DNA of 47,721 nt, taken from contig JBDKUT010000160.1 in the NCBI GenBank assembly GCA_039679545.1, positions 1-47,721 on the forward strand, in the 5' to 3' direction. This document shows, piece after piece, positions 10,354-47,721 of the stretch. Numbering within the stretch: the stretch's first letter is position 1; each line of letters begins with the position of its first letter. Below the pieces are notes generated by a model, which was not told where the DNA came from, searched no databases, and saw only the letters and a list, made by a program, of their open reading frames with translations. A program made the position numbers and the translations under genes. The DNA comes from Thermotogota bacterium. Its GTDB lineage: Bacteria > Bipolaricaulota > Bipolaricaulia > UBA7950 > UBA9294.

Positions 10354-10380
10354 CTCACCTCTCCTTGCCCGAGAAGGATC

Positions 10381-10409: not shown

Positions 10410-10462
10410 CGGAATGGAGACGACCGCCATGATACCGTGCGGGGGACGGAGCGGGGGATGCG

Positions 10463-23588: not shown

Positions 23589-23652
23589 GCCGGCCGCATC
23601 GCGAAGAGCGTGGAGCGGCGCTACTATGCACACCGCAACGGAGGGTAACTCG

Positions 23653-27685: not shown

Positions 27686-27747
27686 GCGACCGCGCGCACA
27701 GTCGGGCCTCGGCCCGTTCGGGTCGCCCTCTCGAAGAGCCGATCCCC

Positions 27748-28302
27748 GTGATCCTCGCATCCGGCTCGCCGCGTCGGGCGGAGCTGCTGTCGCGAATCTT
27801 TGACCACTTCGAGGTTGTTCCGAGCGGCGCGGATGAGACTTCTGACGACCCACCCGAAACGGCGGTGCTCACCGTCGCACGGGCCAAGGCGCGAGAAGTT
27901 GCGCAGAGCCACTACGGGATCATCATTGCCGCCGATACGATCGTCATCGCTCGAGGCCGCGTCCTCGGGAAGCCTGCCTCTCCCGTTGAGGCTCGAGAGA
28001 TGCTCGAGCGGCTCTCCGGGCGGGAGCACGACGTGATCACGGGTTTGTGCGTCCTGCGAACCGATTCTCCCGTCGAGCGCACGGCCGTCGAGCGCACTAC
28101 GGTTCGCTTCCGCGCCCTCCTTCCACGCGAGATCGACGCCTACATCTCGTCCGGGGAGTACGCAGACAAGGCGGGAGCCTACGGAATCCAGGGGCGCGCT
28201 GCCGTCTTCGTCGACCGAATCTGCGGGGATTACTACAACGTCATGGGCCTTCCCCTCTGCCGCCTCGTCCTCCTGTTGCGGGAGGTGGGGGTGGGCGTGT
28301 AG
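27748..28302 (+). CDS. maf: Maf-family nucleoside triphosphate pyrophosphatase (start may instead be CTG at 27682)
   Basis: ILASGSPRR, AADTIV, LGKP, DKAGAYGIQ, GDYYNVMGLP. Confidence 0.92.
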   Translation: MILASGSPRRAELLSRIFDHFEVVPSGADETSDDPPETAVLTVARAKAREVAQSHYGIIIAADTIVIARGRVLGKPASPVEAREMLERLSGREHDVITGLCVLRTDSPVERTAVERTTVRFRALLPREIDAYISSGEYADKAGAYGIQGRAAVFVDRICGDYYNVMGLPLCRLVLLLREVGVGV

Positions 28303-28361
28303 CGTTTCGCCGCGACGACGAAGTGCTGATCGATGGCGAGGCGTCGACAAAGGAGAGCGCG

Positions 28362-30508: not shown

Positions 30509-30518
30509 GTGCGGGCGC

Positions 30519-30547
30519 TTGCCGATCCGCGGGCGCTCCGGTAAGCT
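30519..30547 (+). promoter_or_regulatory. sigma70-like promoter TTGCCG-N17-TAAGCT for glnA
   Basis: Read directly from the sequence; about 35 nt upstream of ATG 30582. Confidence 0.5.
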
Positions 30548-30581
30548 ACTCGCCCCGTTTCTCGTCGAATAAGGGAGACCG

Positions 30582-32401: not shown

Positions 32402-33124
32402 TTATCGCACGATGAACCGGAATGTGTAGTAGACGATCTCCCGAGCCGAGCAGTCGCAGCTCTTCTCCGGCATCGGCATCATCATCGGAGCCGCCTCGCC
32501 GCACGATGCTTCGGGCTTCGGCTCCATGACACACATCGCAGCCTTGTGTGGGCACGACGCCGCCTTCTCGATGGCGAGGACGACCGTGAACGTGCCTTGA
32601 TCGAGAACGCCTGTCGTCACGTCGTAGCCGTCGTCGGTCCATGAGATCTCGCTCACTGGGATCAGCGCGTCGAACAGGTCGCAGGTCGAGGCAATCGACA
32701 GTGCAGTCCCCGTACCGTACTTCAGCCCCTCCTCGCTGAGGACGCCCACCGTGTTGCCGCCCGGCAGCTGAACCGAACAGCGGTCCCAGAGAATCGTGAT
32801 GACGTCTCCCGAGATGTTGTGAATCCACAACGGAATCCTGCTCTCGAACCCCTCCGCGACGAACGAGGCGTTGAACGACGCGCGGATCGTGTCGTCCTGG
32901 AACACCGCCTTCTCCGAGTAGACAGGGTCGAGCAGCTCCAGCGACTGCGTGTGGACGACCGTCACATCCTTGACCGTCGTCTGGGGGGCGGGCGCAACGA
33001 CAACCGGTGCGGCCACGACGGGCTCCGCCGGCTTCTCCGCCGGGTGCATCAAGATCCCGAAGATCAGGAGCGCCCCCATGATGGCGCCGATCACCGCGAG
33101 CTTCACTAGGTCAGTACTCTCCAC
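32402..33124 (-). CDS. Membrane-anchored hypothetical protein with a Cys/Met-rich segment
   Basis: N-terminal TM, Pro/Ala/Val linker, beta-rich domain; AAGGGGTGA RBS and its own terminator. Confidence 0.8.
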   Translation of the reverse strand: MESTDLVKLAVIGAIMGALLIFGILMHPAEKPAEPVVAAPVVVAPAPQTTVKDVTVVHTQSLELLDPVYSEKAVFQDDTIRASFNASFVAEGFESRIPLWIHNISGDVITILWDRCSVQLPGGNTVGVLSEEGLKYGTGTALSIASTCDLFDALIPVSEISWTDDGYDVTTGVLDQGTFTVVLAIEKAASCPHKAAMCVMEPKPEASCGEAAPMMMPMPEKSCDCSAREIVYYTFRFIVR

Positions 33125-33299: not shown

Positions 33300-33515
33300 T
33301 CACCGATCACGTTCGACGAAGAGTGCGAGGTCCGGGCAGTTCGTCTCGCACAGCCGACAGCCGGTGCACGCGGCGGCGTTGGCTACTTCGACCACCCGGT
33401 ATCCCTTGGCGTTGGGGGTCGTCGAAAGGCGCAGGACTCCTTTGGGACAAAAGAACACGCACAGCTCGCAACCCTTGCAGATCTCTCGGCTGATGTGAAT
33501 ACGCGTTGTCGTCAC
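33300..33515 (-). CDS. 2x[4Fe-4S] ferredoxin-like OFOR delta subunit
   Basis: CKGCELCVFFCP and CTGCRLCETNCP, NAKGY; overlaps the sucD-like stop. Confidence 0.92.
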   Translation of the reverse strand: MTTTRIHISREICKGCELCVFFCPKGVLRLSTTPNAKGYRVVEVANAAACTGCRLCETNCPDLALFVERDR

Positions 33516-34393
33516 GGCGCGTTCCCTCCTTCCAGCTTCCGAAGGAGAGGGACGATCTCCGCCGGGTTCCTCGTAACCATACAGCCGGCCTGCTCGAGCG
33601 CCGCCAGCTTGGCCTCCGCCGTCTCCGTCTCACCCTCCACGATAGCTCCGGCGTGGCCCATGCGTGCTCCGACAGGTGCCGCGCGCCCGACAATCAGCAC
33701 GATGACGGGCTTCTTCATCCGAGTGCGAACGAACTCCGCCGCCTCCTGCTCCATCGTTCCCCCCACCTCGCCAAGCAGGATGACGGCCCGAGTCTCGGGA
33801 TCGGCCTCGAACAGGGCGAGGGCGTCACGCTGTGTCGTTCCCCACAGCGGACCGCCTCCGATCCCGACGACCGTGGACTGGCCGATCCCGCTCTCCGTTA
33901 ATCGTTTGCACACTTCGTACGACAAGGCGCCGCTCTTCGAGACGATCCCCACAGCTCCAGGAAGAAGCACGCGATTGGGATGCACGCCCACCTTGCACTT
34001 CCCCGGCGAGACTATGCCCGGCGTGTCCGGGCCTACGACGCGGGTTCCGCGTGAAGACGCGAAGCGGATGATCGCCATCACGTCGTGATCGGGGATCTCC
34101 CCCGCCGACAGCACAAGGAGGGGGATCCCGTTGTCGATGACCTCGATCGCTGCGTCCTTGGCGGACCGCGCGGGCACGAAGCTGAGCGCAGCGTCGACAG
34201 GTCCCACCTTCACCGCTTGCTCGACCAGGTTGTAGACAGGGATCTCGTGGACGAGCGTGCCCCCTTTTCCGGGCGTCACGCCCGCCACCACGCGGGTCCC
34301 GTAGTCCTTCATCACTTGCGCCTGGAAAGAGCCCACTTTCCCCGTGATTCCTTGCACGAGTACCCGGGTTGATTCGTCTACGAGGATCGACAT
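33512..34393 (-). CDS. sucD: Succinate--CoA ligase-like alpha subunit
   Basis: VQGITG, GVTPGKGG, SKSGALSYE, GEVGG, RMGHAGA (phospho-His). Substrate may not be succinate. Confidence 0.9.
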   Translation of the reverse strand: MSILVDESTRVLVQGITGKVGSFQAQVMKDYGTRVVAGVTPGKGGTLVHEIPVYNLVEQAVKVGPVDAALSFVPARSAKDAAIEVIDNGIPLLVLSAGEIPDHDVMAIIRFASSRGTRVVGPDTPGIVSPGKCKVGVHPNRVLLPGAVGIVSKSGALSYEVCKRLTESGIGQSTVVGIGGGPLWGTTQRDALALFEADPETRAVILLGEVGGTMEQEAAEFVRTRMKKPVIVLIVGRAAPVGARMGHAGAIVEGETETAEAKLAALEQAGCMVTRNPAEIVPLLRKLEGGNAP

Positions 34394-35532
34394 CGGTCCT
34401 CCTTCGCGAGGGACACGGCCTGCCCCACAGCCGCAGGTAGATCGTCGTAAGCCGCGATCCCCACGCGAGCGAGGATTCGGCGGCCTTCCTCCTCTTTTGT
34501 ACCCACCATCCGGACGACCGTGGGCGTCATTCCAGGGTGGCTCGTGCGGAACGCGTAGATCCCTTCCGCGATCTCGTCCATCCTTGTCAGCCCTCCGATC
34601 AAGCTGACAAGGACAACCCGCACGGCATCGTTCGCCAAGACAGCGTCGAGCGCCGTCTGGATCCCCCTCGCGTCGCCCAGCGCCCCAAGCTCACAGAAGC
34701 ACGCGGCGCGGCCGCCGGCATCGTGGATGAGGTCAAGCGCCAACATGCCTGTTCCCGCTCCATCGGAAATGAGGGCGATGTTGCCATCAAGCGCCACGTA
34801 GGTCAGCCGCGCGTCGCTGGCTACCCTCTCGGAGGCGGACATCGCGTGCGCGACCGCGTCCGCCTGTTCCGCGCGAAGCTCGTCAAACAAGTCGGCGCGC
34901 CGAAAGCCCGCCTTGTCGTCGAGCGAGAGCTTCGCATCGAGCGCGACGAGCCCCGCGGAACTGACCCCAAGCGGATTGATCTCAACGAGCGTGGCATCCA
35001 GGTCACGAAACAGCTCAAACGCTCCGCCCACGATGGTTCGTAGTTCGTTGACGCGGCTCTCCAGTCCAAGCTGGAGAGCGAGAGAGCGCGTCCCGTGCTC
35101 CGTGGGACCGAGGCAGAGGTCAATCGGAAGTCGCACGATGGCGCGCGGGTCGCGGCGAGCGAGCTCCTCGATATCCATTCCGCCTGAGCGGGAGGCTAGC
35201 ACCATCGGCGCATTCAGCCCCCGGTGGATCAGGATCGCGAAGTAGACCTCCCGCTCGACTTTCCGCTCCTGTTCGGCAAGAACGACGCGGACGGGATACC
35301 CCTTGATAGACAGCGCCCGCAGGTCGCAAAGGGCGTCCTCCGCCTCTCGACGGCACTTGACCACGCGAATGCCTCCGGCCTTGCCTCGACCTCCGACGGG
35401 CACCTGTGCCTTGAGCACGGCCGGGAACTCGACGGCGCTCGCGTCGTCCGTACTGCGAAGGACCACACCGTGCGGAGTCGGAATGCCAATGTCCTGAAAG
35501 AGCCGCTTCGCTTGGAACTCGAGCACGCGCAT
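34378..35532 (-). CDS. sucC: Succinate--CoA ligase-like beta subunit (divergent)
   Basis: LEFQAK, KAQVPVGGRGKAGG, GGMDIE, EINPL, LDAK, DGAG, GGLTRMD. Confidence 0.88.
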   Translation of the reverse strand: MRVLEFQAKRLFQDIGIPTPHGVVLRSTDDASAVEFPAVLKAQVPVGGRGKAGGIRVVKCRREAEDALCDLRALSIKGYPVRVVLAEQERKVEREVYFAILIHRGLNAPMVLASRSGGMDIEELARRDPRAIVRLPIDLCLGPTEHGTRSLALQLGLESRVNELRTIVGGAFELFRDLDATLVEINPLGVSSAGLVALDAKLSLDDKAGFRRADLFDELRAEQADAVAHAMSASERVASDARLTYVALDGNIALISDGAGTGMLALDLIHDAGGRAACFCELGALGDARGIQTALDAVLANDAVRVVLVSLIGGLTRMDEIAEGIYAFRTSHPGMTPTVVRMVGTKEEEGRRILARVGIAAYDDLPAAVGQAVSLAKEDRCRSS

Positions 35533-35535
35533 GGC

Positions 35536-36099
35536 CTAGACCTCCACGACACGGTTCCGTTCGACCGCGAGCGCCTTCCCGCAAGCTGCCGCTCGGAGGT
35601 TCGTCTCGACGAACTTCTCGGGAACGCTGTCGCGGATCGCGTGGTTCAGGGCATCCTCGGGAACGATCCCCGTCGCCTGACGAAGGAAACCAAGGAGCAC
35701 CATGTTGGCAACGATCGGCATGCCAAACTGCTCCGTTGCCACCTGCGTCACCGGAACAGCTACCACTTGCACGTCGCTGCGTGAGGGAGTCGCTACAAAC
35801 TGAGGGTCGACGAGCAAGACGCCGCCCGGTCGCAGCCTCTTCGCATAGCGATCGTAGGCCGCCTGCGACATCGCAATCAGGACGTCGACCTGATCAGGAG
35901 ATGGAGAGCGAAGGGCTCCCTCAGCGATACTCAACTCCGCCTGACACTCGCCGCCACGCGCCTCCGATCCGTACGACTGGGTCTGGACTCCGTTCAGCCC
36001 CGCGCGGACCGCCGCGGTGCCGAGCACGGTGGCGGAGAGGACAAGCCCCTGCCCGCCAAAACCGCAAAACTGGAAGTTGACACGCCGCCCGCCACTCAT
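35536..36099 (-). CDS. 2-oxoacid:ferredoxin oxidoreductase gamma subunit
   Basis: GFGGQG, QSYGSEARGG, ANMVLLG. Confidence 0.92.
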   Translation of the reverse strand: MSGGRRVNFQFCGFGGQGLVLSATVLGTAAVRAGLNGVQTQSYGSEARGGECQAELSIAEGALRSPSPDQVDVLIAMSQAAYDRYAKRLRPGGVLLVDPQFVATPSRSDVQVVAVPVTQVATEQFGMPIVANMVLLGFLRQATGIVPEDALNHAIRDSVPEKFVETNLRAAACGKALAVERNRVVEV

Positions 36100-36911
36100 G
36101 ACTCCCCTCCTTGCGGCATCGTCGAGCTGCCCGCAAACACGGGGCGGCTCGTGTTCACAAAGTCCCCGAGGACGAACCGCGTTCCGAGGTCGTCCGCGGA
36201 GAGGAGCTTCGCCTGCTCCGCCGTTACCGAATGCTCTTCAATCCAGCGGATGTTTTTCGCAGCGTCGCCCGATCCCAGCGCTCGGCGTCCGTAGTTCGTC
36301 GGACACTGCGCCACGAACTCCACGAGCGAGAAGCCTCGGTGTCGCAATGCCCCTTCGATCGCGCGAATCCCTTGCCGTGAGCGGAACGTATTCCATCGGC
36401 TGACGTACGTAGCGCCCGCTGTGGCGGCAAGCGCGCAGAGGTCGAACCGCGGCTCGACGTTTCCGTAGGGCGTTGTCATCGTATTCGCTCCCTCCGGAGT
36501 CGTAGGCGCGACCTGCCCCCCCGTCATGCCGTAGTTGAGGTTATTGACGACGATCATGGTGACGTCGAGGTTTCGCCGAGCGGCCTGGATGAGGTGATTC
36601 CCCCCAATGGCCGCGGCGTCGCCGTCACCCGAGAAGATGACTACCTTGAGTGCGGGGTTGTGAAGCTTCACACCTGTTGCCCAAGGCAAGGTCCTTCCGT
36701 GAACGCCGTGAAGGCAGTCAGCCTTGAGGTAGACCGGAATCCGCGCCGTGCAGCCTACGCCGCCGATTCCGACCAAGCGGCCGAAATCGAGCCCGACGGC
36801 GTCCGCCGCGCGGAGAAAGTAGTTGAGCACCTGGGCCGCGCCGCAGCCGGGACAGAAGAAATGCGGCAGGCTCCCCTCCCGCAAATTCCTCGTGAGCGGG
36901 TTCAGCGTCAT
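36096..36911 (-). CDS. 2-oxoacid:ferredoxin oxidoreductase beta (TPP-binding) subunit
   Basis: FCPGCG, GVGC, HGR, GDGD...NN, YGMTGGQ, CPT; ATG at 36911. Confidence 0.93.
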   Translation of the reverse strand: MTLNPLTRNLREGSLPHFFCPGCGAAQVLNYFLRAADAVGLDFGRLVGIGGVGCTARIPVYLKADCLHGVHGRTLPWATGVKLHNPALKVVIFSGDGDAAAIGGNHLIQAARRNLDVTMIVVNNLNYGMTGGQVAPTTPEGANTMTTPYGNVEPRFDLCALAATAGATYVSRWNTFRSRQGIRAIEGALRHRGFSLVEFVAQCPTNYGRRALGSGDAAKNIRWIEEHSVTAEQAKLLSADDLGTRFVLGDFVNTSRPVFAGSSTMPQGGES

Positions 36912-38047
36912 CGCGCCGCCTCCTCGATCACGCGCAGGATCTCCTGCGCTGTGTGGATCTCGCCGCGGTTCTTCGTCACGCGGACGACCGGGCACCGCCT
37001 GCCGACGACGCGCTCGATCTCCCCGGCGTACTTCCCTACATTCATCTCCACCGCGAGCACAGCGCGCGCTTGCTGAGCGGCGTGACGGATCTCGTCCTCC
37101 GCGACGGGCCACACGGTGACGAGCCGAAGAAGCCCGGCCGCGATCCCGTTCTCGCGTGCGGCCTCCACCGCGTCGAGCGCTGGGCGCGCTTCGCTTCCGT
37201 AGGCGATGAGGACAATCTGCGCGTCGGCCAGGTAGTACGCCTCGGTCTCGACGATCTCGCGTCGATGGGCTGTGATCTTGCCGAGGATCCGCTCGTACAT
37301 TCTTTCGAATACGTCGGCATCCCAGGCAATTCCGCCGCGCTCGTCATGCGGGTTCAGGGAGTGAAGAATCCCGTACCCCTCGCCAAGGTTGGGCAAGGGC
37401 GGCACGCCGTTCTTCTCGGCTCGAAAGGGTATGAACTCGGCCGGTGGCACAGCCGGACGGCGGCGGTTCACAATAGGGATCTCCGAGGCGTCTGGGATTG
37501 TCAGGTTCTCCCGCATCAAAGCAATCGTCGTCTCCGACATCACGATGACCGGTGCGCGGAAGCGCTCGGCGAGATTGAACGCCTTCACGGTGTGGTCGAA
37601 CAGCTCCTGCACCGACCACGGCGCGAGCACAATCATCTCGTGGTCCCCGCTCGCCGCCCAGCGAAGCTGCATGACGTCCGCCTGGGTCGCGTAGTTCTCG
37701 CCGCGGCAGCGCTGCACGTCGACGATCACACACGGGATCTCGGCGGCGACGGCATAGCCGACACCTTCCAGCATGTAGTTGAATCCCTCGCTCGCCGTCG
37801 CCGTCATCGCCTTCGCTCCGGCGAGCGAGGCCCCGGTTACCGCGTACACCGAACACAGTTCGTCCTCTCCCTGCAGGAACTTGCCACCGACCTCCGGCAT
37901 GCGCGACGCCATGCGTTCAGAGATCTCGTTCGCCGGCGTGATCGGGTACCCGGCGAAGAAGTCGCACCCCGCGGCTAGTGCTCCCTCCACCACCGCGTAG
38001 TTGCCCAACATGAAGTGCTTGCCTGTCAGCACCCTGCCACGTCCCAT
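36908..38047 (-). CDS. 2-oxoacid:ferredoxin oxidoreductase alpha subunit
   Basis: FAGYPITP, EDE, TATASEG, AYGS, VEMN; ATG at 38047 follows GAGGAGG. Confidence 0.93.
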   Translation of the reverse strand: MGRGRVLTGKHFMLGNYAVVEGALAAGCDFFAGYPITPANEISERMASRMPEVGGKFLQGEDELCSVYAVTGASLAGAKAMTATASEGFNYMLEGVGYAVAAEIPCVIVDVQRCRGENYATQADVMQLRWAASGDHEMIVLAPWSVQELFDHTVKAFNLAERFRAPVIVMSETTIALMRENLTIPDASEIPIVNRRRPAVPPAEFIPFRAEKNGVPPLPNLGEGYGILHSLNPHDERGGIAWDADVFERMYERILGKITAHRREIVETEAYYLADAQIVLIAYGSEARPALDAVEAARENGIAAGLLRLVTVWPVAEDEIRHAAQQARAVLAVEMNVGKYAGEIERVVGRRCPVVRVTKNRGEIHTAQEILRVIEEAAR

Positions 38048-38058
38048 GCGCAACCTCC

Positions 38059-39273
38059 TCAGTGAGTAGAGCCCACTTGCTTTGCTCTCCCCCGCTTCTG
38101 GGGCGCGCGCTGGCGAAAGAAGCGGCCCATACGGGCAAAAGCCTCGCGGATGTCCTCTTCGCTCGCGGCGTAGGACAGTCGGAGATGCCCCTCTCCGCAA
38201 GATCCGAAGGCCGAGCCCGGCACAGTCGCAACGTGCGTCTCCTCCAGCAACGCCTTGGCCAAGTCAACGGACGGCTCGTTTGATTGGAACGACGGGAAAC
38301 AGTAGAAGGCGCCTAGCGGTTCGTGGGCGCAGCGAAGGTAGCCGGATGCCTGAATCCTCTCCACCATCAGGCTGCGCCGCGTGGCGAATCCCCGAACCAT
38401 CTCATCGGCGGCGCTCGCGGACTCGGCGCTCGTCAGCGCCTCGAGGGCTCCCGCCTGGGCAAACGCCGTCACGCAGCTTGTCGAGTGCTGCGTGATTTTG
38501 AGCATTCCCTTCAGGATCCCGCGCGGCGCCGCCACGTACCCTAGGCGCCAGCCGGTCATGGCGTAGCTCTTGGAGAAGCCGTTTACGGTGATAACGTTGT
38601 CGAACTCGGACGCGGGGCTGTACCGTTCCGCGCCGTAGTTGAGACGCTCGTAGATCTCGTCCGAAAGGACATACGCGCCGCGGTCCTTCGCCATTCGTAC
38701 AATGGAGCGGACGGTCTCGGGCGGGAAGACGGCCCCTGTAGGATTGCACGGCGAGTTGACCACGACGACTCGAATGGAGTCGTCGAGGCATGCGGCGACT
38801 CTGTCGAGGTCAGGCTGGAACCCCTCCACGGGGCTCGAGGGGACGCGCACGACACCAGCGCCCGCCATCTGTGCAGCCGGCTCGTAGCTCACCCACGCAG
38901 GGTCAAGCAGCAGTACCCGATCGCCCGGTTCCAGCATCGCCTGGAACGCTAGGTAGATCGCGTACTTCGCACCGGGAGTTACCATGACGTCCTGCACCGC
39001 CGCAACGATGCCATTCTCCTTCGTGAGCTTGGAACAGATCGCTTCCCGCAGTGCGAAGTCCCCAGCCGTCAGCTCGTACTTGGTTTTCCCCGCCGCGAGC
39101 GCCTCACATGCCGCACGCTTGATGTTCTCCGGCGTGTCGTAGCACGGCTCCCCCACTCCCAGGGAAATGACGTCCTTGGCTCCTTCTCGCAGGAGAGTCT
39201 TTAGCGCGTTGTCGACCTCCTCGGTCGCCGACGACGCTATGCTCGCTACCTTCGTTGATAGAGCCTGTCGCAT
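38059..39273 (-). CDS. PLP-dependent aminotransferase class I/II (AspC-like)
   Basis: GEP, NSPCNPTG, SDEIY, NGFSKSYAMTGWRLG, GAFY, RLSYA; ATG at 39273 follows GGAGG. Confidence 0.93.
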   Translation of the reverse strand: MRQALSTKVASIASSATEEVDNALKTLLREGAKDVISLGVGEPCYDTPENIKRAACEALAAGKTKYELTAGDFALREAICSKLTKENGIVAAVQDVMVTPGAKYAIYLAFQAMLEPGDRVLLLDPAWVSYEPAAQMAGAGVVRVPSSPVEGFQPDLDRVAACLDDSIRVVVVNSPCNPTGAVFPPETVRSIVRMAKDRGAYVLSDEIYERLNYGAERYSPASEFDNVITVNGFSKSYAMTGWRLGYVAAPRGILKGMLKITQHSTSCVTAFAQAGALEALTSAESASAADEMVRGFATRRSLMVERIQASGYLRCAHEPLGAFYCFPSFQSNEPSVDLAKALLEETHVATVPGSAFGSCGEGHLRLSYAASEEDIREAFARMGRFFRQRAPQKRGRAKQVGSTH

Positions 39274-39416
39274 GATGTCTTCCTCCGTTCCTGACCAACG
39301 CGGAGCTGTCCGCTTCTCTCCGGGGCTCGCACACCTGGCGCGAGATCCCGCCCCGCGGCCTCTCCACGCCGCTGCCTCCCGGGAGCCAGTCCGACCCCCC
39401 TCAACCTCGCTCTGTT

Positions 39417-40598
39417 TCACCCAAGCCCGTCGCTACCGCCTTTGCTGGCGGCTTCTCCTTTGACTATCCTTCGGAGCACCTCGGCAAGGAGCAGGGTCCG
39501 GACGCGGAGAGAGGTCAGATCGACCCACTCGTCGTTCGTGTGGGCCCCTCCCCCGGCAGGGCCCATCCCGTCAATGCAGGGCACCCCCAGCGAGGTCAGC
39601 AGGTTTCCGTCTGAGGCTCCTCCACGGGGCTCCGCCTCGAAGGCAAGCTCCGTCCCCAGACTTCTTGCGACCGATGTGATGAGATCCCGGAACCGCTCGG
39701 TTCCCGAAACCGGCTCCATTGGCGGGCGGTGAAACCTCCCCGCGACAGAGACAGACGTACCGGCCGTGTACGTGGCGTGCACGATCCTGGCGAGCGCACG
39801 CTCGATCCGCTCCTGCTCTCCCCGACTGGCGACCCGGACGTCCACGACGGCCTCTGCCGCATCCGGGACGACGCTCGGCCCCGTTCCGCCACCGAGCACT
39901 CCGACGCTGACGGAAGTTCCCCGCTCGGAATCCTGAAGACGTATCGTGTCTCCAAGCGCCTGAATCAACGCGTGGATCGCATTGGCCCCCATCCCCTCGG
40001 CGGCGTGAGCCGATCGGCCGGCGGCTGCGAAGTGAAAGACGCCGACCCCCCTGCGCGAAAGCACCAACTTGCCTTCCGTGTCCGGCGGCTCGAGGAGGAA
40101 GACGCACTGGGCTCCCCCGACCACAGCGGGGAGGTGCGCCCGGCTTTCGGGAGAGCCCGGCTCCTCGTCTCCGTTGAGGAAGACACGGAGCCCCACTTCC
40201 GACGCGCGAATCCCGTTCTCACAGACCATGCGCAGAGCGCACACCAGAAGGGCCAGTCCGCCCTTCATGTCCAACACTCCGGGTCCCCGCGCCGTCTGGG
40301 TTGACGCGTCCATCGCGAACGGGCGGCGGGCTGCGGTCCCGGCGGGGAACACCGTGTCCATATGCCCCATCAGCATGACAGCCCGGCTGCTGGGCCCCCA
40401 CGTTGCGTACACCGTCGGGGCGAAGCGGTTCTCTGCAAGCCACTGCACATCAAAACCGAGCGACGATAGTTCAGCCGACAGGATGTCTGCGACGCGCCGA
40501 ACGCCAGCCATGTCTTCGCTTCCGCTGTCGACGTTCACCAATCGTGCGAGGAGATCTACTTCTTCTCCGAACCACTGCGTCGATCGGCCATCCACCAT
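39417..40598 (-). CDS. M20 metallo-amidohydrolase, carboxypeptidase G2-like
   Basis: GHMDTV, DMKGG, DEE, EP, GGASDGN, GAHTNDE; no signal peptide. Confidence 0.9.
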   Translation of the reverse strand: MVDGRSTQWFGEEVDLLARLVNVDSGSEDMAGVRRVADILSAELSSLGFDVQWLAENRFAPTVYATWGPSSRAVMLMGHMDTVFPAGTAARRPFAMDASTQTARGPGVLDMKGGLALLVCALRMVCENGIRASEVGLRVFLNGDEEPGSPESRAHLPAVVGGAQCVFLLEPPDTEGKLVLSRRGVGVFHFAAAGRSAHAAEGMGANAIHALIQALGDTIRLQDSERGTSVSVGVLGGGTGPSVVPDAAEAVVDVRVASRGEQERIERALARIVHATYTAGTSVSVAGRFHRPPMEPVSGTERFRDLITSVARSLGTELAFEAEPRGGASDGNLLTSLGVPCIDGMGPAGGGAHTNDEWVDLTSLRVRTLLLAEVLRRIVKGEAASKGGSDGLG

Positions 40599-40604
40599 GT
40601 CGAC

Positions 40605-42146
40605 CTACCTTCCGTCCGCCGTGCTGGCGGGCTCGTCGAGCGTTTCCTGCATCAGCAGCTCGGCAAGCTGCGCGCGTGCCGACAACGTGAGCGTCTCGCA
40701 GGTCGCCAAGGCGCGCGCCGCAGCCTCACCACTGGTTCTCGCGAGCAGGTTACGGAGCCCCCCTTCATCGTCATGGCGCTGGAAAGCCGCTACGCGTTCG
40801 GTCAGGTCCGGCAGCGCGTCGATCCATTCCCTCTCCAGGGCGTCGTACGCTTCCCGGATGGCCGGGTAGAGCAGGCTCCAGCCATGGCGAGCCAAGGCGC
40901 CCAACGAGAAGAACTTCCAGAACGCGCCCTTGTGCGGATCGCCGGTGTCGTATCCCTCTGGTAGGGCGTCCGCCGCCGGGAAGAGGGGCACGTAGCACCC
41001 CGTGGAAGGTGAGTGAAAAGAAAACCAGACCACGTCGGGAGCCGGGGCCTGTAAGGCCCCGCGAGCTTGAGCCACGTAGCTCAACTGCGTGTTGAACATG
41101 TCGATCGGTCTCGGATACGGCGTTGGGACGGCGAAGGGGGGGTGCGGACACCCGTAGACTCCCCCGCCGTTCTCCGGGCGGGTCGTGTCGAACGGAGTCC
41201 CTTCGTAGTGGTCGCGCAGGATAGCCAGAACCTCGAGAAGGGACAGTTTGTGACGTGGGACGACGAAGTGCGGGCCGGCCCACTCGACGCCCTGAGTTGG
41301 CTCGGGCAGCGCGTGGCCGCCGGCGAGGCTCATCACGCGCCACTCACGTAGTGTGCTGTACACCCGGTGGCTGCTCGGCACACCGTCTCCATCGCGGTCA
41401 CCGTACGCCGTACAGAACGAGAACGGACGCTTAGAGGCCTGATCGTACCAACCCTGCTGCACGGCATAAGGGATCAGTCCCGGTGAACTCAGGTACTCGC
41501 CTCCTTCCGGGTTGCCCTCTCCGCTCAGCCAGAAGCGGTTGGCGTTTACTGACACGGCGTCGTCCGGCACGCGCTGCGCGATCCACTCATGCCCTCCTGG
41601 AGCGTTGAACCACCAAGCCTCTGCAAGATCAATGACCCCGATGTTCTTTCCGGACGGGAACGGCCCCACGTCCAACAGGCCGTGCTCTTCTACGAGGGCG
41701 CCCATGATGGCGACGGCATCGCGCGCCGATCTCGCACGCTCTAGCGCGATCCGCATGAGCTGGAAGTGGCTAATGTAGCTTTCGGCAGCCCGCCGCAGGA
41801 GACGCCGGGAGCGGCACGCGTTCATCACCATGGCGACATGGTGCTCGTTCATGCAGGGAAGGTAGTCCGTGCCGAGCACTCGAGCTGTTGCCCGTGCCTG
41901 GGGCACGTACGCCGCGATGTCCTGTCTCGCTCTACGCCAGTCTCGGTAGATCGGGATCTTCGTTCCAGCGGCGTGGTTCTGTCTCGGCTGCATCTCCAGC
42001 CAGGCCACGGATCCCCCGTCCGAGTTGAAGGCCGCCGTGACCGATCCGTCGGCGGTGGCGTCCTTTCCGAGGAGGAGCGTCGTGCACCCTCCTGCTTCCA
42101 GGGCGTTCGGGCAACGCAGGTTCACTCTCACAGTCGCCTCGTCCAC
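40605..42146 (-). CDS. C69-family Ntn-hydrolase (dipeptidase/secernin-like)
   Basis: CTTLLLGKDATADGS, MNEH, ALERARSARDA, WIAQRVPDD, ANRF, LRDHYEGT. Confidence 0.88.
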   Translation of the reverse strand: MDEATVRVNLRCPNALEAGGCTTLLLGKDATADGSVTAAFNSDGGSVAWLEMQPRQNHAAGTKIPIYRDWRRARQDIAAYVPQARATARVLGTDYLPCMNEHHVAMVMNACRSRRLLRRAAESYISHFQLMRIALERARSARDAVAIMGALVEEHGLLDVGPFPSGKNIGVIDLAEAWWFNAPGGHEWIAQRVPDDAVSVNANRFWLSGEGNPEGGEYLSSPGLIPYAVQQGWYDQASKRPFSFCTAYGDRDGDGVPSSHRVYSTLREWRVMSLAGGHALPEPTQGVEWAGPHFVVPRHKLSLLEVLAILRDHYEGTPFDTTRPENGGGVYGCPHPPFAVPTPYPRPIDMFNTQLSYVAQARGALQAPAPDVVWFSFHSPSTGCYVPLFPAADALPEGYDTGDPHKGAFWKFFSLGALARHGWSLLYPAIREAYDALEREWIDALPDLTERVAAFQRHDDEGGLRNLLARTSGEAAARALATCETLTLSARAQLAELLMQETLDEPASTADGR

Positions 42147-42148
42147 TC

Positions 42149-43306
42149 TCAGGCCACAAGGTCCTGGCTGAGGTGCGTCAGAATCTCGGCGCCCGTTTTC
42201 GTGACGAGCACCGTCTCACTCACGCCAACGCCGTACATGCCGTACCTACGAAGCGCGGGAGGAATGTGGAACACCATGCCAGGCTGGAGAATCGTCTGAT
42301 CGCCTTCCGAGAGGCTGACGATGTGCCCCTCCCCCCAGTCGGGGGGAAAGCTGACGCCTACGGAGTACCCCGCACGCTTGCGGAAGTTCTCGGTGTACCC
42401 CGCGTCGTCGATGACGGCCTGGCACGCGCGATGCGGCACCTCGGCTCTCACACCTGGTTTGATGGCGGCAATGCAAGCCGCAAGGCCCTCGACGCACGTC
42501 TTGTACATCCGCCTCACTTCGGCCGGCGGCTCTCCGACGCAGCCGGTTCGCATCAATGCAGCGGTATAGCGGTTGTAACAGCCGCCCAACTCGAGCAGCG
42601 CGACGTCTCCGCGCTTCAGCACGTAACGATGGAACGTCGTGTGGGCGACCCCCGACTTTCTCCCCGCCGTGATGATGGGTTGGGACGACAAGTACTCGCC
42701 GCCCCGCGCCATGCAGCCGTGGAACATCGCGGCGGCGATGTCGTTCTCGCTTACCCCGGCCTTCACTGCAGCCAATCCCTCGGCCATGCCGGCTTCCGTG
42801 ATGTGGGCGGATTCGCGCAGACACTCGATCTCCTGAGGCGACTTGATCGCGCGCAGCGCCTCGACCAGACCGTGGACCGGCAGCCCTGCACGGCCCAGCT
42901 TCGCCATGACGCGACCGAAGTCCCGCGCCGTCAGGAACTGCGCTTCTTCCTCCACCCCCACGCGCCCTTTGGCAAGCTTGCGGGCGTCCAGCGCCGCGAG
43001 GAGCGCCTCGGCCGGCGCCTGATTGTCGGAGTAGAGGACAATGTCATCCACGGTCGACGAGTACTCAGCGCACCCTAGTTCCATTTCGCGCACGAGCAAC
43101 ATCAGGCGTCCTTGGCTGCTCACCGCGAGACACTGGAACGAGGAGTATCCAATGGACTGATATCCACACAAGTAGTGCGTGTTCTCCGGCGTGAAGACAA
43201 GGAGGACGTCGAGGCTCTGTTCAGCCATCCGCTGCTGCAAACGCTTGATACGGCTCTCATACTCCTCGCGAGGGAACACGAGTTGTTTCTCCAGCACGTC
43301 TGACAC
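42149..43306 (-). CDS. M24-fold hydrolase, ectoine hydrolase (DoeA)/creatinase-like
   Basis: FPREEY..R, IKSPQEI, ELGGCYNRY, GYSVGVSFPPDWGE, GMVFH; GTG follows AAAGGAG. Confidence 0.88.
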   Translation of the reverse strand: MSDVLEKQLVFPREEYESRIKRLQQRMAEQSLDVLLVFTPENTHYLCGYQSIGYSSFQCLAVSSQGRLMLLVREMELGCAEYSSTVDDIVLYSDNQAPAEALLAALDARKLAKGRVGVEEEAQFLTARDFGRVMAKLGRAGLPVHGLVEALRAIKSPQEIECLRESAHITEAGMAEGLAAVKAGVSENDIAAAMFHGCMARGGEYLSSQPIITAGRKSGVAHTTFHRYVLKRGDVALLELGGCYNRYTAALMRTGCVGEPPAEVRRMYKTCVEGLAACIAAIKPGVRAEVPHRACQAVIDDAGYTENFRKRAGYSVGVSFPPDWGEGHIVSLSEGDQTILQPGMVFHIPPALRRYGMYGVGVSETVLVTKTGAEILTHLSQDLVA

Positions 43307-43350
43307 ACTCGCTCCTTTCGTTACCGAACGGCAGCTTGATGCCGCGGCGT

Positions 43351-44181
43351 CTACGCCATTCCTGCGGTCTTCTTGGCCAACGCCTTCACGACAACAGAGA
43401 CTCCCGCGTTCAGGATGACAACCACCAACGCGAGCACGATGAGGGCGGAGAACACGCCCGCTGTGTTGTACTTCGTGCTCGACATTGAGATCAGGAAAGC
43501 GATACCCCGGTAGGACGCGATGAACTCACCGACGACAGCACCGACGACAGCGTCGGGCACAGCGATTCCGAGAGACGTCAGCATGAACGGAAGAACCGCG
43601 GGGATGATGACCTTGTTGATCGTTGCTGCGCGGCTTGCCCCGAGCGTCTTCGCGACCGTCAACAGCCCGCGATCCACATTGCGGATCGCGCGAATCGTGT
43701 TCATGAAGATGATGAAGAAGACGAAGAACGCCGTAAGCAGGATCTTGGGCAACATGCCGACACCCAGCCACATGATCAGAAGCGGCGCGATGGCGATCGA
43801 GGGGATCGAGTACACAACCAACACGAGTGGCTCGATGACCTCATAGAAAAAGAGAAGCAGGCCTAGGACGATCGCCATCGAGATGGCCGTCACCGCGCCC
43901 AGCAGGTATCCCAGGGACATCTCGATCAGGGTAAACTGGAGGTGATACCATAAAGTGCCGGAACGGAGCCACTTGACTGACTGCCTAAGCACCGCAGAAG
44001 GAGAGGAGATGTAGAAAGGGTCGATCAACCGCCCGGACACCAACTCCCAGGCGACAAAGAACAAGACGATCAGCGCGATGCGAGCCAGAAGCGTCGACGC
44101 GGACATCCATCGGCGTTCGTGCTGCCACTTGGATCGAACGTTGTCCTGTAACTCGATCGAGTACGCATCCAGCGCCTGCAT
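43351..44181 (-). CDS. NitT/TauT-family ABC permease
   Basis: PSAV, IPSIAIAPL, TLGAS, GAVVGEFI. Confidence 0.92.
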   Translation of the reverse strand: MQALDAYSIELQDNVRSKWQHERRWMSASTLLARIALIVLFFVAWELVSGRLIDPFYISSPSAVLRQSVKWLRSGTLWYHLQFTLIEMSLGYLLGAVTAISMAIVLGLLLFFYEVIEPLVLVVYSIPSIAIAPLLIMWLGVGMLPKILLTAFFVFFIIFMNTIRAIRNVDRGLLTVAKTLGASRAATINKVIIPAVLPFMLTSLGIAVPDAVVGAVVGEFIASYRGIAFLISMSSTKYNTAGVFSALIVLALVVVILNAGVSVVVKALAKKTAGMA

Positions 44182-44235
44182 CTTCCTCCGGGCTCCTTTC
44201 TCGCTCGAGGACTCCCCCGTCAGCCAGTGATGCGA

Positions 44236-44277
44236 GGGAGAGGCGCTTTGGGTTGCGCCCAGAAGCGCCTCCTCCCC
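44236..44277. other. Intercistronic stem-loop just downstream of the SBP gene
   Basis: gggag-aggcgctt-tggg [ttgcg] ccca-g-aagcgcct-c-ctccc. Confidence 0.55.
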
Positions 44278-44296
44278 CAACCGGTCACGGCTTCGC

Positions 44297-45322
44297 TTAG
44301 TTGCTCACCGTATTCGGGTTGTAGATGTTCGTCCACAGGACGCCTTCCGTCGTGTTGAACTCGCCTTCAATCACGCCGAGTTGTCCGTAGACCTCGAGCT
44401 GGTTCTTGATTCCCTGCTCGGTGATCAGGCCGTCCGTGTTGCTGCCGAACCCAATCAGCGTCGCCTCGATAATCTCCACGGGTGTTGACGTGTACCAGCG
44501 AGCTTGGAGGACCCGAGCGGCGTCTGCTGGATGGTCGACGATATACTTGTTGGCCCGATCCACGGCCTTGCAGTAGCCAACACAAAGGCCGGGATTCGCT
44601 TCCGCCCAGTCCCGGTTCACCGCGATGTTGGTGAACATGAACTCCTTGAAGATGTCGATGTCTTGCCCAGGCCGGATCAGCATCGTCGCAACGCCGTCGG
44701 CAACCGCCTTCTGCGGATTCGGCGCAGAGAGCATGAATGCATCGATCTGGTCAGCAACAATGCCGGCATACAGGGCAGCCCCGTTGCCAATGGCGAGGAA
44801 CTGCGCATCGCGCTCGGGGTCCGCGCCGATCATCTGGAGCATATACTGGGGGAACAGCTGGGTCACCGCGCCGGGGCGTGTGATCCCGATGCGCAGGCCC
44901 TTCAGCACAGCAATCCGGTCGTTGATCGGCGATTGGGGGGTAACCCCCTTCTCGGCCAGGACGTCGTTCCGAACAACGAGGTTCATGCTCAGTCCGTTCT
45001 CGACGTTGTAGATGAAGACGATGTCCTTGCCTTGCGACTGCAAGTTCGCGACGTCATCGATGCCCAAGTCTACGAACTGGGCGTCGCCGGAGACGAGCGC
45101 CGCGGCGCCCAGAGCGCCGCTCGCGATCTCGACGAACTCGAAGTCCAGACCCTCGTCCTCAAAGTAGCCAAGCTCGTCGGCAAGCAGAATCCCGTTCATG
45201 CTTCCGACCAGGAAGCCGGCCTGAACAACCTTGGGCAGACTCGCTGCCAGCGAAGATAGCCCTAGCGCCATTGTGAGAAGAGCCACCCACACGACTATCC
45301 GGGGAAACCTGCTAACTTGCAT
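44297..45322 (-). CDS. NitT/TauT (SsuA/THI5-like) substrate-binding protein
   Basis: Signal peptide; ADELGYFEDEGLD, ALVSGD, LKGLRIGITRPG; ATG follows AGGAG. Confidence 0.9.
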   Translation of the reverse strand: MQVSRFPRIVVWVALLTMALGLSSLAASLPKVVQAGFLVGSMNGILLADELGYFEDEGLDFEFVEIASGALGAAALVSGDAQFVDLGIDDVANLQSQGKDIVFIYNVENGLSMNLVVRNDVLAEKGVTPQSPINDRIAVLKGLRIGITRPGAVTQLFPQYMLQMIGADPERDAQFLAIGNGAALYAGIVADQIDAFMLSAPNPQKAVADGVATMLIRPGQDIDIFKEFMFTNIAVNRDWAEANPGLCVGYCKAVDRANKYIVDHPADAARVLQARWYTSTPVEIIEATLIGFGSNTDGLITEQGIKNQLEVYGQLGVIEGEFNTTEGVLWTNIYNPNTVSN

Positions 45323-45459
45323 ACCGTCTCCTCCTGACTCGTACGTCTCTTGCACTGATCGTAAGCTACCGTAGCCCACACCTTGCCGTTCCATGCTCCG
45401 TCCGATGCCAGGCACCTCCTTTCACATCACTTCCCGACGCAGAGTTCCTGTGGAGAGGC

Positions 45460-46284
45460 TCATTGCTTCGGCTCCCTTCGCCCGATCCACCGCTCCATGG
45501 GCACGAGCAGTCCGCTAAGGAGCAAGCTCAGCACGGTCAGGATCAGGACGCCGGCAAAGACCGTATTCGGTGCCAACTGGCTCGAGCCTCGATTGATCAG
45601 AACGCCAACTCCTCGCTGAGCTGCGACGAACTCCCCCAAGATCGCACCCAGGACGGCGCTAGCCGAGGCCACACGCATCGCGGTCACCGTGTACGGCAGC
45701 GCTGAAGGGAAGAGGATCCGATACGTCAACTGAAGTCGGGAGGCCCCCATGACACGGGCCACATTCAGCAGCTCCTCCGAAGCGGAGTTGAGGCCCATCA
45801 CTGTGTTCACGAAGACCACAAAGAAGCACATGATGGAGGCTACGATGAGCTTGGGTGCGATCCCGAGTCCGAACCACATCACCAGGATCGGCGCGAGCGC
45901 CATCTTCGGAATGCCGTAGAAGGCTTGGATGAAAGGGAACACGACGTTGTAGAAGCGCCGGGAGAAGGGCAGGAGGCACGCCGCAAAAATCCCGGCGCCC
46001 ACTCCGATGCCGTACCCTGCAAGCACCTCGATCAACGTGCTCTGAAGGTCGGGCCAGAGGCTCCCGGATCTCGCGAACTGGACGAGTGTCCGGACAATCC
46101 CCGATGGCGTACCGCTGAATCCCTCGTCAAAGAGCGCGCCTGCGCCGAACTGCCAGAGGAGGATGACCACGGCGACGATCGTCGTTCGCAGCGTCCACTT
46201 CAGGATGTGGCGACGCCGAGCGCGGCGCTGATACAGCTCCCGCTCTGCCTCCTTGAGCTGCTCGACAAAGTCCGGGACGCTCAT
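45460..46284 (-). CDS. NitT/TauT-family ABC permease
   Basis: IPKMALAPI..WFGLG, MGAS, GAILGEFV; overlaps the ATPase stop. Confidence 0.92.
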   Translation of the reverse strand: MSVPDFVEQLKEAERELYQRRARRRHILKWTLRTTIVAVVILLWQFGAGALFDEGFSGTPSGIVRTLVQFARSGSLWPDLQSTLIEVLAGYGIGVGAGIFAACLLPFSRRFYNVVFPFIQAFYGIPKMALAPILVMWFGLGIAPKLIVASIMCFFVVFVNTVMGLNSASEELLNVARVMGASRLQLTYRILFPSALPYTVTAMRVASASAVLGAILGEFVAAQRGVGVLINRGSSQLAPNTVFAGVLILTVLSLLLSGLLVPMERWIGRREPKQ

Positions 46285-47117
46285 CGCGAGCTCCCATTGC
46301 TGGCACAGGATGCTCCGCGCCCTTGTGCGAGGATCTCCTCTCGGATGTCCTGCCAAATCTGGTCGTAGATGTGGTCGAATCCGGGCACCTCATGGATGTG
46401 GAAAGCGTCGCGCGGATGGGCCAGCGGCACGGGGTAGATGTTCTTGATCCTCCCCGGAGAGCAACTCATCACCATAACGCGATTGGCGAGGACGATGCTC
46501 TCCACGAGATCATGGGTGATGAAAACGACCGTCTGCTTCCCTTCATCCCACAGGGAGAGCAGTTGGTCCTGAAGCACGAGTCGCGTCTGAGCATCCAGAG
46601 GGCCAAACGGCTCATCCATCAAGATGACATCGGGGTTGTAGGCGAGCGTGCGGGCGATCGACACGCGCTTCCGCATCCCGCCCGACAGCTCGTGAGGGTA
46701 GTGCTGTTCAAACCCGGTCAGGCCGACCTGCCGAACGTGCTCTTCGGCCAGCCTCTCGCGATCGCGTCGAGCCACCCCTCGCACCTCAAGCGAGAACTCC
46801 ACGTTCTTGACCACCGTTCGCCATGGAAGCAGGTTGTCGTCCTGCGTCACGTAGCCGACCTGAGTGTTGATCCCGCGAATCTCGCCGCCCCTGTACAGAA
46901 CCTGTCCCGATGAAGGTTGCATCAGGCCGGCGATCAGGTTGAGGACGGTCGACTTGCCGCACCCGCTCGGGCCGACGATGGTCAGAAACTCCCCCTGGGG
47001 CACGGTGAACTCGGCGTTCTGCAGAGCAAGCATGGCGATGGGGTTTCGCTTATTCCCCGACACGAACACCTTGTACACGCCGTGCAACTCGATGATGGAC
47101 GTCTGGTGGTCTCCCAT
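46281..47117 (-). CDS. NitT/TauT-family ABC ATP-binding protein
   Basis: GPSGCGKST, LLPWRT, LSGGM, MDEPFGPLD, ITHD. Confidence 0.95.
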   Translation of the reverse strand: MGDHQTSIIELHGVYKVFVSGNKRNPIAMLALQNAEFTVPQGEFLTIVGPSGCGKSTVLNLIAGLMQPSSGQVLYRGGEIRGINTQVGYVTQDDNLLPWRTVVKNVEFSLEVRGVARRDRERLAEEHVRQVGLTGFEQHYPHELSGGMRKRVSIARTLAYNPDVILMDEPFGPLDAQTRLVLQDQLLSLWDEGKQTVVFITHDLVESIVLANRVMVMSCSPGRIKNIYPVPLAHPRDAFHIHEVPGFDHIYDQIWQDIREEILAQGRGASCASNGSSR

Positions 47118-47135
47118 GGCGGACGGATCACCTCG

Positions 47136-47721
47136 CTACAGCATCGCCTGAACTCGGCCGCCGTCGACCTGAATCGCGTTTCCGGTCATGTACGACGCAC
47201 GCTCCGATGCAAGGAAGGCCACGACGTCCCCGAACTCCTTGGGGTCGCCAATGCGCCCCATCGGGATGTCGGTCAACCACTCCGCGGCGGCCTGCTCCGA
47301 CGTGATGCCCTTCTTCTGTCCCTCCTCGGCAAAGAACTTCGCCTCGGCTTCGGTCATGTACGGACCCGGGCAGACGACGTGCACCGTGATTCCCGAGCGC
47401 GAGTACTGATTCGAGAGGATCTTCGCCAGCCCAACGACCCCCATGCGCGCGGCGCTGGACAGCACCATGTCGCCGAGCGGCTGCTTGACGGAGGTTGACG
47501 TGATGTTGATGATTCGCCCGAACCCCTGCCGCTGCATGATGGGGATCGCGTGGCGGCAGAGACGCACCACGCTTTTCATCACCAGGTCGTGCGCCACATC
47601 CCACTTCGCGTCGTCCAGTTCCGCGAACCGGCCGTGCGGTGGGGGACCGCAGTTGGTGATGAGGATGTCAATCCGTCCGAGCTGGTCGAGCAGAGACTTC
47701 ATGACCCGGTCTATGTCCTCA
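47136..47721 (-). CDS. SDR-family oxidoreductase, atypical; 5' end outside the window
   Basis: DILITNCG, GRIINITS, IPMGRIG, ASYMTG..IQVDGG; frame open to the window edge. Confidence 0.9.
   Translation of the reverse strand, partial: EDIDRVMKSLLDQLGRIDILITNCGPPPHGRFAELDDAKWDVAHDLVMKSVVRLCRHAIPIMQRQGFGRIINITSTSVKQPLGDMVLSSAARMGVVGLAKILSNQYSRSGITVHVVCPGPYMTEAEAKFFAEEGQKKGITSEQAAAEWLTDIPMGRIGDPKEFGDVVAFLASERASYMTGNAIQVDGGRVQAML

Follow-up and report, generated by a model that had tools for sequence, protein, structure and literature searches.

In archaeal peptide fermentation, amino acids pass through an aminotransferase, a 2-oxoacid:ferredoxin oxidoreductase (OFOR) of the Kor, Vor or Ior type and an ADP-forming acyl-coenzyme A (CoA) synthetase. 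The same three-step logic, leading to reduced ferredoxin and ATP, was noted in a cluster of 15 genes on contig JBDKUT010000160.1 of a Thermotogota bacterium (assembly GCA_039679545.1; GTDB lineage Bipolaricaulota), the entire 47,721 nucleotides of which are referred to here as the window. In contrast with the archaeal route, the genes form a single operon with a SucCD-type ligase, an importer and hydrolases, the pocket motifs are distinct, and the module is rare and patchily distributed. Features shared with SucCD and 2-oxoglutarate:ferredoxin oxidoreductase are the fold, the phospho-His, the distal Tyr, the YPITP motif and the carboxylate-binding Arg, whereas the ligase differs from SucCD in its DGAG, GPDT, CE[LM]GG, G[LM]T, GGGPxW and VHP motifs and its separate clade, and the OFOR differs from Kor in RCRGEN, TAS[AE]G and Asn232. 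With ectoine catabolism (DoeABCD/EutABCDE) the cluster shares a metal-free M24 hydrolase carrying the EutD His and Glu, and Eut-like genes recur near the family; here, by contrast, the M24 protein falls under the relevant cut-offs, M20 and C69 hydrolases replace DoeB, and a class I aminotransferase and OFOR replace DoeD and DoeC. According to the available portions of PMC11489063 and PMC10413351, SucCD homologues with changed pockets (HpfYZ, SauCD and SqwKL) make ATP from acyl-CoA other than succinyl-CoA; these pair with a CoA-acylating aldehyde dehydrogenase as opposed to the OFOR of the present module (a review, PMC12890257, also available in part, was a further source for comparison). Our tentative reading, whose chances seem to us a little short of even, is that a module distinct from the housekeeping enzymes would oxidise a non-proteinogenic, 3-substituted, probably aspartate-sized polar acidic amino acid to a substituted malonate, yielding reduced ferredoxin and ATP.

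Scans with SucC and OFOR alpha alignments gave at least 80 genome loci (40 of 64 parts) and at least 80 metagenome loci (21 of 64 parts); four metagenome loci, three titled as human-gut assemblies and one an unlabelled contig with a similar score, were excluded before counting. Among the genome loci listed, 27 belonged to this family and 53 were other SucC proteins. Listed matches, loci of relatives and the window together made 111 loci, 88 after removal of near-duplicates at 95%, and 51 of these were at least 10 kb long (large loci); neighbours were labelled by BLAST to representatives scanned with Pfam and NCBIfam, loci may be cut on one side, and counts of accessory genes are without background control. 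The conserved unit consists of OFOR and the SucCD-like ligase, which the aminotransferase usually accompanies. Of the 53 loci that possess the complete set of five genes, 49 show the order alpha-beta-gamma-sucC-sucD and four a rearrangement of these genes; the family aminotransferase was present in 28 of the 51 large loci. A threonine-synthase-like gene was present in 14/51 and a 2-hydroxyacid dehydrogenase gene in 10/51 large loci. Several loci have these two enzymes in the usual place of the aminotransferase, which marks the 2-oxo acid as a hub fed by different front ends. Racemases and varied amidohydrolases are recurring partners, with a racemase-like gene of any kind in 33/51 large loci, an aspartate or glutamate racemase in 25/51 (aspartate 14/51, glutamate 13/51) and any amidohydrolase in 39/51. 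Mutual exclusion of the two racemases was considered and dropped, both being present in two loci, which is near chance. Carriers were anaerobic bacteria and archaea, including Chloroflexota, Desulfobacterota, Bipolaricaulota, Bathyarchaeia and Thermoplasmata among others; Dethiosulfatarculus sandiegensis SPR (L074) is a carrier with a named species and a record that is not a metagenome-assembled genome. The module was found in 8 of 184 genomes of its own phylum at E < 1e-200 (next best 1e-128), in none of five other genomes of its own genus, and in 2/401 and 1/401 genomes of two further phyla, centre genome included (four candidates scored per genome). Such a rare and patchy spread fits an uncommon substrate.

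Pocket residues were compared across the core enzymes with search patterns that contained neither DGAG nor RCRGE, so that counts of these motifs are not built in, although matches were ranked by similarity. Distal anion-binding residues were retained throughout, namely the aminotransferase Lys (34/34), the OFOR beta Arg (73/73) and the SucD Tyr (59/59). In the window aminotransferase, which scores under the curated aspartate aminotransferase (AspAT) cut-off (best 350 vs 550), S15, T17 and K103 align with Ser14, Thr16 and the distal Lys of 1bkg, which we take to be functional positions of the Thermus enzyme, and Thermus V17 and N20 are replaced by E18 and D21, the motif SxT[ED]xxD being present in 30/34 sequences. 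The OFOR has the YPITP motif and the carboxylate-binding Arg; in its alpha subunit, for which 1yd7 is the closest solved structure, the RGGPSTG loop is shortened by four residues and reads RCRGEN (RxRG[ED][ND] in 81/82). The position of StOFOR1 Asp468, linked to specificity in the part of PMC5020499 available, is Asn in 78/81 (Asn232 in the window) as opposed to Leu in 1yd7, 8ys5 and 6n2n. Scores were below both OorA/OorB cut-offs (283 vs 579 and 226 vs 364), and OFOR alpha passed that of PRK08659. In the ligase, catalytic H247 and distal Y159 are present, NGAG of the beta subunit reads DGAG in 56/56, GPN of SucD reads GPD in the window's subgroup, and the loops LDVGG, GIV, GGDP and IMP read CE[LM]GG, G[LM]T, GGGPxW and VHP; Thermus SucC has GIT, so the change from GIV to GLT is mild. 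By our own mapping, all five pocket-framing loops named in the accessible portion of PMC11494057 deviate from SucCD. The beta subunit scored below both SucC cut-offs (304 vs 376, 297 vs 370) and the alpha subunit above that of NF004230 (348 vs 336) and below that of TIGR01019 (343 vs 353).

The module is unlikely to be housekeeping, because its ligases form a clade of their own, carriers have a second SucC and the pocket-loop changes are family-wide. In a quick tree, DGAG SucC proteins made up one side of a branch (53 rows vs 21, SH-aLRT 99), and a second SucC was found in all five carriers tested (four NGAG, one CGAG). Housekeeping kor/sucCD as the whole story was made unlikely by these second copies and the separate clade. 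The host genome (2.35 Mb, 93.6% complete) has a separate Kor-type alpha and a VorB, both over cut-off, and a second, likewise non-canonical SucCD-like pair; a canonical NGAG SucC was not found there, so that the module could still serve succinate in this host. Ordinary kor-sucCD linkage with NGAG occurs in some archaeal loci, and databases label the present ligase proteins succinyl-CoA synthetase. The dedicated, non-housekeeping aminotransferase/OFOR/ADP-forming ligase route put forward in the original prediction, which had been made from the window alone, was thus upheld by the conserved linkage, by other Kor, Vor and SucCD copies in carriers and by pockets that are not ordinary. The second SucCD-like pair of the host lies on another contig (C82:663-8513, L024) with a D-2-hydroxyacid dehydrogenase, a Por-type OFOR and an aldehyde:ferredoxin oxidoreductase; it is long-branched, and its beta subunit has SGAG and a GIN loop, as HpfY, but its alpha subunit keeps Tyr. 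This second specialised module might serve a 2-hydroxy acid, for instance sulfolactate.

All 15 open reading frames (ORFs) of the cluster are on the minus strand (33300..47720), in the order and of the Pfam families originally described, with sucC and sucD placed, as had been pointed out, between OFOR gamma and OFOR delta. Gene starts were refined from the start codon and usually also from an upstream ribosome-binding site. The genes are as follows.

47136..47720, minus strand: short-chain dehydrogenase/reductase (SDR), 5'-truncated; Pfam adh_short_C2; YxxxK reads SxxxR; shares 76% identity with the full-length SDR of relative G167
46281..47117, minus strand: NitT/TauT-type ATP-binding cassette (ABC) ATPase; best NCBIfam model TauB, 219 bits vs cut-off 357
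45460..46284, minus strand: ABC permease 1; BPD_transp_1; refined start
44297..45322, minus strand: NMT1/SsuA-type solute-binding lipoprotein-like subunit; best PDB match an unannotated exported protein, E 1e-13
43351..44181, minus strand: ABC permease 2; BPD_transp_1; refined start
42149..43306, minus strand: M24 hydrolase, metal-free DoeA/creatinase branch; best PDB match ectoine hydrolase 6twk, E 1e-49
40605..42146, minus strand: C69 N-terminal nucleophile hydrolase; Pfam C69; nucleophile Cys21 retained; NF033678 161 bits vs 250
39417..40598, minus strand: M20 metallo-amidohydrolase, carboxypeptidase G2-like; metal motifs retained; 245 bits vs 357, 232 vs 349
38059..39273, minus strand: class I aminotransferase, Thermus AspAT type; PDB 1bkg, E 5e-90; S15, T17, K103 retained; E18, D21 gained
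36908..38047, minus strand: OFOR alpha, Kor-type; family loop RCRGEN (113-118), N232
36096..36911, minus strand: OFOR beta; R57 retained
35536..36099, minus strand: OFOR gamma; Pfam POR
34378..35532, minus strand: SucC-like beta subunit; DGAGTG (D257), CELG and GLT loops; under both SucC cut-offs
33512..34393, minus strand: SucD-like alpha subunit; H247, Y159 retained; D123, H138, GGGPLW altered
33300..33515, minus strand: OFOR delta, 2[4Fe-4S] ferredoxin; Pfam Fer4; best NCBIfam model OorD, under cut-off

Gaps between successive genes from SDR to delta are 18, -4, 137, 115, 44, 2, 6, 143, 11, -4, -4, 3, -16 and -4 bases; the overlapping stops and starts said to be frequent occur at 5 of the 14 junctions, with gaps of up to 143 bases elsewhere. 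Because the window is an entire contig, the end of which cuts the SDR at its 5' end, the cluster exceeds the 15 genes originally counted, all of which are real, and probably includes an upstream TfrAB-like flavoenzyme, known from relatives, that had escaped the prediction. The retrieval of upstream genes that the prediction had called for was achieved with relative G167, of another genus in the same family. One G167 contig carries ATPase, permease, solute-binding protein, permease, M24, C69, M20, aminotransferase and OFOR alpha, beta and gamma in identical order at 51-81% protein identity until its end, so the arrangement is not due to chance. A second contig ends with genes for GntR, a TfrA-like flavoprotein, a TfrB-like Fe-S/CCG protein and the SDR, and overlaps the first by 18 bases, in frame. 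Since G167 adds GntR and TfrAB-like genes ahead of the SDR, the complete unit probably has at least 18 genes. In the host genome, tblastn did not detect a TfrA-like gene and the end of the window contig has no overlap with another contig, which likely reflects an assembly gap. The TfrA-like proteins read QFYP, where we take QFHP to be the canonical fumarate reductase motif, and the SDRs of this module are without the catalytic Tyr; on these grounds the two proteins are unlikely to be a plain fumarate reductase and a plain alcohol dehydrogenase.

Relatives G015 and G023 share the core and have TfrAB-like and SDR genes resembling those above (42-52%); they differ by another solute-binding protein, DUF6282, an aspartate-type carbamoyltransferase, other M20 proteins, an aspartate racemase and, in G023, C45-like hydrolases. 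Urate fermentation by the 2,8-dioxopurine (yge) pathway ends in an ammonia-lyase giving pyruvate. That pathway resembles G015 and G023 in that a flavin/Fe-S redox step, amidohydrolases, a carbamoyltransferase and an M20 enzyme lead jointly to a free amino acid, whereas the present module ends in OFOR and ligase.

Catalytic residues of the M24, C69 and M20 proteins are intact, and none of the three attains an NCBIfam cut-off. H222 and E239 of the M24 protein align with His238 and Glu255 of EutD, presumably the catalytic residues of ectoine hydrolase, and the prolidase metal ligands are absent; scores on the DoeA models were 278 vs 575 and 201 vs 613 bits. M24 was present in 11/51 large loci, C69 in 2/51 and the three hydrolases jointly in just 2/51, so these were discarded as a defining unit. 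The neighbourhood search that had been suggested therefore bore out linkage of OFOR and SucCD, with DoeA-like, C69 and M20 genes rarely joined and racemases recurring instead, and the three amidohydrolases assigned to the pathway are present, catalytic residues included, as a lineage-specific front end. Linked aspartate racemases are canonical-looking (E 5e-61 to 1jfl, Arg48 and Lys164 positions retained), whereas linked glutamate racemases are remodelled, with CTD for CTH and LLRLAE in 15/15 aligned; L068:5298-6161 and the 14 other aligned sequences form a distinct subfamily beside the module. The linked carbamoyltransferases belong to the aspartate type, and in three of four the pocket reads HDLP and TRLNKEG where HPLP and TRVQKER are, we assume, canonical. 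Homologues with these motifs (L021:7282-8775, L022:7688-8635, L154:3625-4572) exceed PyrB cut-offs (two tested); they are probably catabolic variants that carry a wrong annotation.

Among other neighbours, MtmB-like methyltransferases and corrinoid proteins flank the module in L067, L071, L077, L156, L158 and L161, some of which also have MttB-like and PxpABC genes; the MtmB-like proteins of L067, L071 and L077 are about 455 aa long with no in-frame stop. This flanking suggests an N-methylated precursor in those carriers. In L173, L174, L177 and L182 a recurring block of D-aminoacylase-like, ureidoglycolate-lyase-like, DUF6282 and FrhB-like genes follows the ligase subgroup with a GFN loop. 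Atlas look-ups gave entries just for C69 and DUF6282.

Given the gene content, conservation and residue changes observed, we infer a substrate as follows. Retained anion sites together with acidic and polar pocket gains would suit a dicarboxylate-like amino acid that carries an extra amino or hydroxyl group, and aspartate size is suggested because the linked aspartate racemase is unmodified whereas the glutamate racemase is remodelled and because the carbamoyltransferases are of the aspartate type; 3-amino- and 3-hydroxy-aspartate are guesses at lead candidates. A small cyclic or N-substituted precursor would be taken up by the NitT/TauT importer, as its family implies, after which the TfrAB-like flavoenzyme and Tyr-less SDR (upstream in relatives) might adjust the redox state of a ring or of a C=C or C=N bond. 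The DoeA-like enzyme would open a cyclic amidine or amide, C69 and M20 would strip the acyl or peptide remainder, and the D form could be fed in by a racemase, whose gene is linked to the module in many carriers but lies apart from it in the host genome. From family chemistry, the aminotransferase would give the 2-oxo acid, OFOR the acyl-CoA, CO2 and reduced ferredoxin, and the SucCD-like ligase the free acid and ATP via phospho-His247. Several points weigh against this reading. An abundant natural source of 3-aminoaspartate is not known to us; the accessory genes include many that indicate glutamate instead (PxpABC, gamma-glutamyltransferase, M42, glutamate dehydrogenase, TAXI and a carboxypeptidase-G2-like M20); the racemase could act on product, not substrate; and 4/34 aminotransferases are without the Asp motif. 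The family may hold more than one substrate specificity, because a 16-member ligase subgroup has different loops (GFN, plus GPG[STC] in SucD). The OFOR beta Arg is a soft marker, because Arg there favoured pyruvate in StOFOR1 (accessible text of PMC5020499). The ligase Asn-to-Asp changes may tune metal binding rather than substrate choice; in the available part of PMC11489063, the sites with this change bind phosphate, Mg2+ and the C1-carboxylate jointly.

An unlikely, though substantial, alternative is a divergent yet ordinary glutamate module, in which gamma-glutamyl peptides, pyroglutamate or N-acyl, N-methyl or D-glutamate would give glutamate and, by way of 2-oxoglutarate and succinyl-CoA, succinate and ATP. 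The Kor-type OFOR with its alpha subunit over the PRK08659 cut-off, the retained anion sites, the glutamate-releasing neighbours (those named above, with hydantoinase/oxoprolinase and MtmB-like genes) and the failure to find an NGAG SucC in the host genome are all consistent with it, and glutamate to succinate, which the original prediction had listed, keeps its place among the candidates. It leaves unexplained, however, the rarity of the module and the family-wide changes across three core enzymes and the linked glutamate racemase; other carriers retain a second SucC, and the linked TfrA-like proteins read QFYP as opposed to the QFHP of fumarate reductases. A glutamate-sized substrate with an additional group would accommodate the polar pocket gains: 4-hydroxyglutamate would yield 4-hydroxy-2-oxoglutarate, malyl-CoA and malate, or 4-aminoglutamate would yield aspartate, with ATP, and aspartate as product would account for the aspartate racemase. 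Neighbours such as class I fumarase, LeuCD-like, IlvD-like, AcnX, RraA-like aldolase, maleate-isomerase-like and 2-hydroxyacid dehydrogenase genes fit this scheme, but most are confined to 1-2 of the 51 loci each, the malate-CoA ligase model gives SucC a lower score (251 vs 604) than SucC models do, and the distal loop residues are bulkier (L/M/F for I), so that we consider it distinctly improbable. Plain aspartate, converted through oxaloacetate and malonyl-CoA to malonate and ATP, would match the canonical-looking racemase, the AspAT-type transaminase, the aspartate-type carbamoyltransferase and the aspartoacylase-family and D-aminoacylase neighbours; it is nevertheless very unlikely, as oxaloacetate can go via pyruvate with equal or better yield and the acidic gains in transaminase and carbamoyltransferase are left unexplained.

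A sulfonated amino acid, another of the original candidates, seems improbable, whether cysteate or sulfolactate is converted through sulfopyruvate and sulfoacetyl-CoA to sulfoacetate and ATP or homocysteate to 3-sulfopropionate. SauCD, SqwKL and HpfYZ act on sulfonates (available portions of PMC10413351 and PMC11489063), the importer is of the NitT/TauT type, CuyA-like and ComC-like genes occur, under cut-off, in single loci, and ligase subgroups II and III carry GFN/GLN loops resembling GIN of HpfY. Three linked racemases exceed the CuyB cysteate-racemase cut-off (254-259 vs 190), although this model was run on linked racemases only and passing may not discriminate. Against this, the window ligase has Tyr159 (Tyr in 59/59) and GLT and so is without the signature of the 3-sulfopropionate ligase HpfYZ, given as His160 (alpha) and GIN (beta) in the accessible part of PMC11489063. 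Linked SauS/SqwD aldehyde dehydrogenase and a sulfonate exporter were absent from the window and scanned neighbours, no SauCD/SqwKL model was among the NCBIfam matches of window proteins, and the neighbours chosen for Pfam scan, a selection, gave no TauE exporter (that of the genome is on another contig) and no SauS/SuyAB label, with one distant fragment far under the Xsc cut-off. The ectoine-like substrate also proposed at the outset is highly improbable. In an anaerobic ectoine route, DoeA-like opening and deacetylation to diaminobutyrate would be followed by alpha-transamination and formation of beta-alanyl-CoA, giving beta-alanine and ATP; DoeA is the closest solved M24 protein, some loci have EutA-, EutC-, EutE- and EhuCD-like neighbours, and acidic pocket gains could bind an amine. 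The M24 protein is far under both DoeA cut-offs, however, as are all Eut-like neighbours under theirs, M24 is found in a minority of loci, DoeB, DoeC and DoeD were not found among the 15 genes or the four upstream genes of G167, and the distal Lys, Arg and Tyr that bind anions are retained.

Elsewhere in the window, a 240-aa ORF (32402-33124, minus strand) follows the ferredoxin gene by 175 bases on the same strand; it has no Pfam or NCBIfam match and a Cys-containing tail, is unmatched to neighbour families of related loci, and has a terminator-like hairpin at 32373. Maf-like, panB and glutamine synthetase genes (26953-31964, plus strand) face the cluster and are apparently unrelated housekeeping genes. 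A CofE-like gamma-glutamyl ligase domain protein (23416-24639, plus strand) converges with a LysA-like pyridoxal-phosphate decarboxylase (24636-26108, minus strand), both under cut-off, and the window further encodes a 1161-aa multi-PAS signalling protein (14751-18236, plus strand) and a 1091-aa SARP/TPR-like regulator (7465-10740, minus strand). A promoter and terminator scan gave no excess over shuffled sequence, and names of homologues and PDB matches of the solute-binding protein gave no clue to its ligand. The closest named homologues come from Ca. Bipolaricaulota, to which the host probably belongs. Contigs from two wastewater metagenome DNA runs of one study span all 30 bins of the cluster with no substitution or indel listed, and these runs may be the source sample of the assembly; the sole RNA run of that study gave just 18-31 base matches, and no RNA dataset was listed with the cluster.

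The system is real and conserved and, as a variant of known chemistry, apparently undescribed. In agreement with the original prediction, which did not recognise the arrangement as a described pathway, a literature search found no description of it, most subscription journals being outside its reach. The signatures given here define an enzyme subfamily that crosses domains, and succinyl-CoA synthetase labels on its members probably inflate calls of the tricarboxylic acid cycle in uncultured anaerobes. A bolder proposal, which we think has a minor chance of being right, is that a new OFOR class acts on amino- or hydroxy-oxaloacetate, that aminomalonyl- or tartronyl-CoA drives ATP formation by a SucCD-type ligase, and that 2,3-diaminosuccinate or 3-hydroxyaspartate from reduced N-heterocyclic carboxylates is fermented; if true, this would be substrate-level phosphorylation through an alpha-substituted malonyl thioester in anaerobes. 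The three core enzymes are soluble, and identifying their substrate might bring to light an organic-nitrogen compound not recognised so far, together with a new ATP-yielding step of fermentation in digesters and probably also in sediments.

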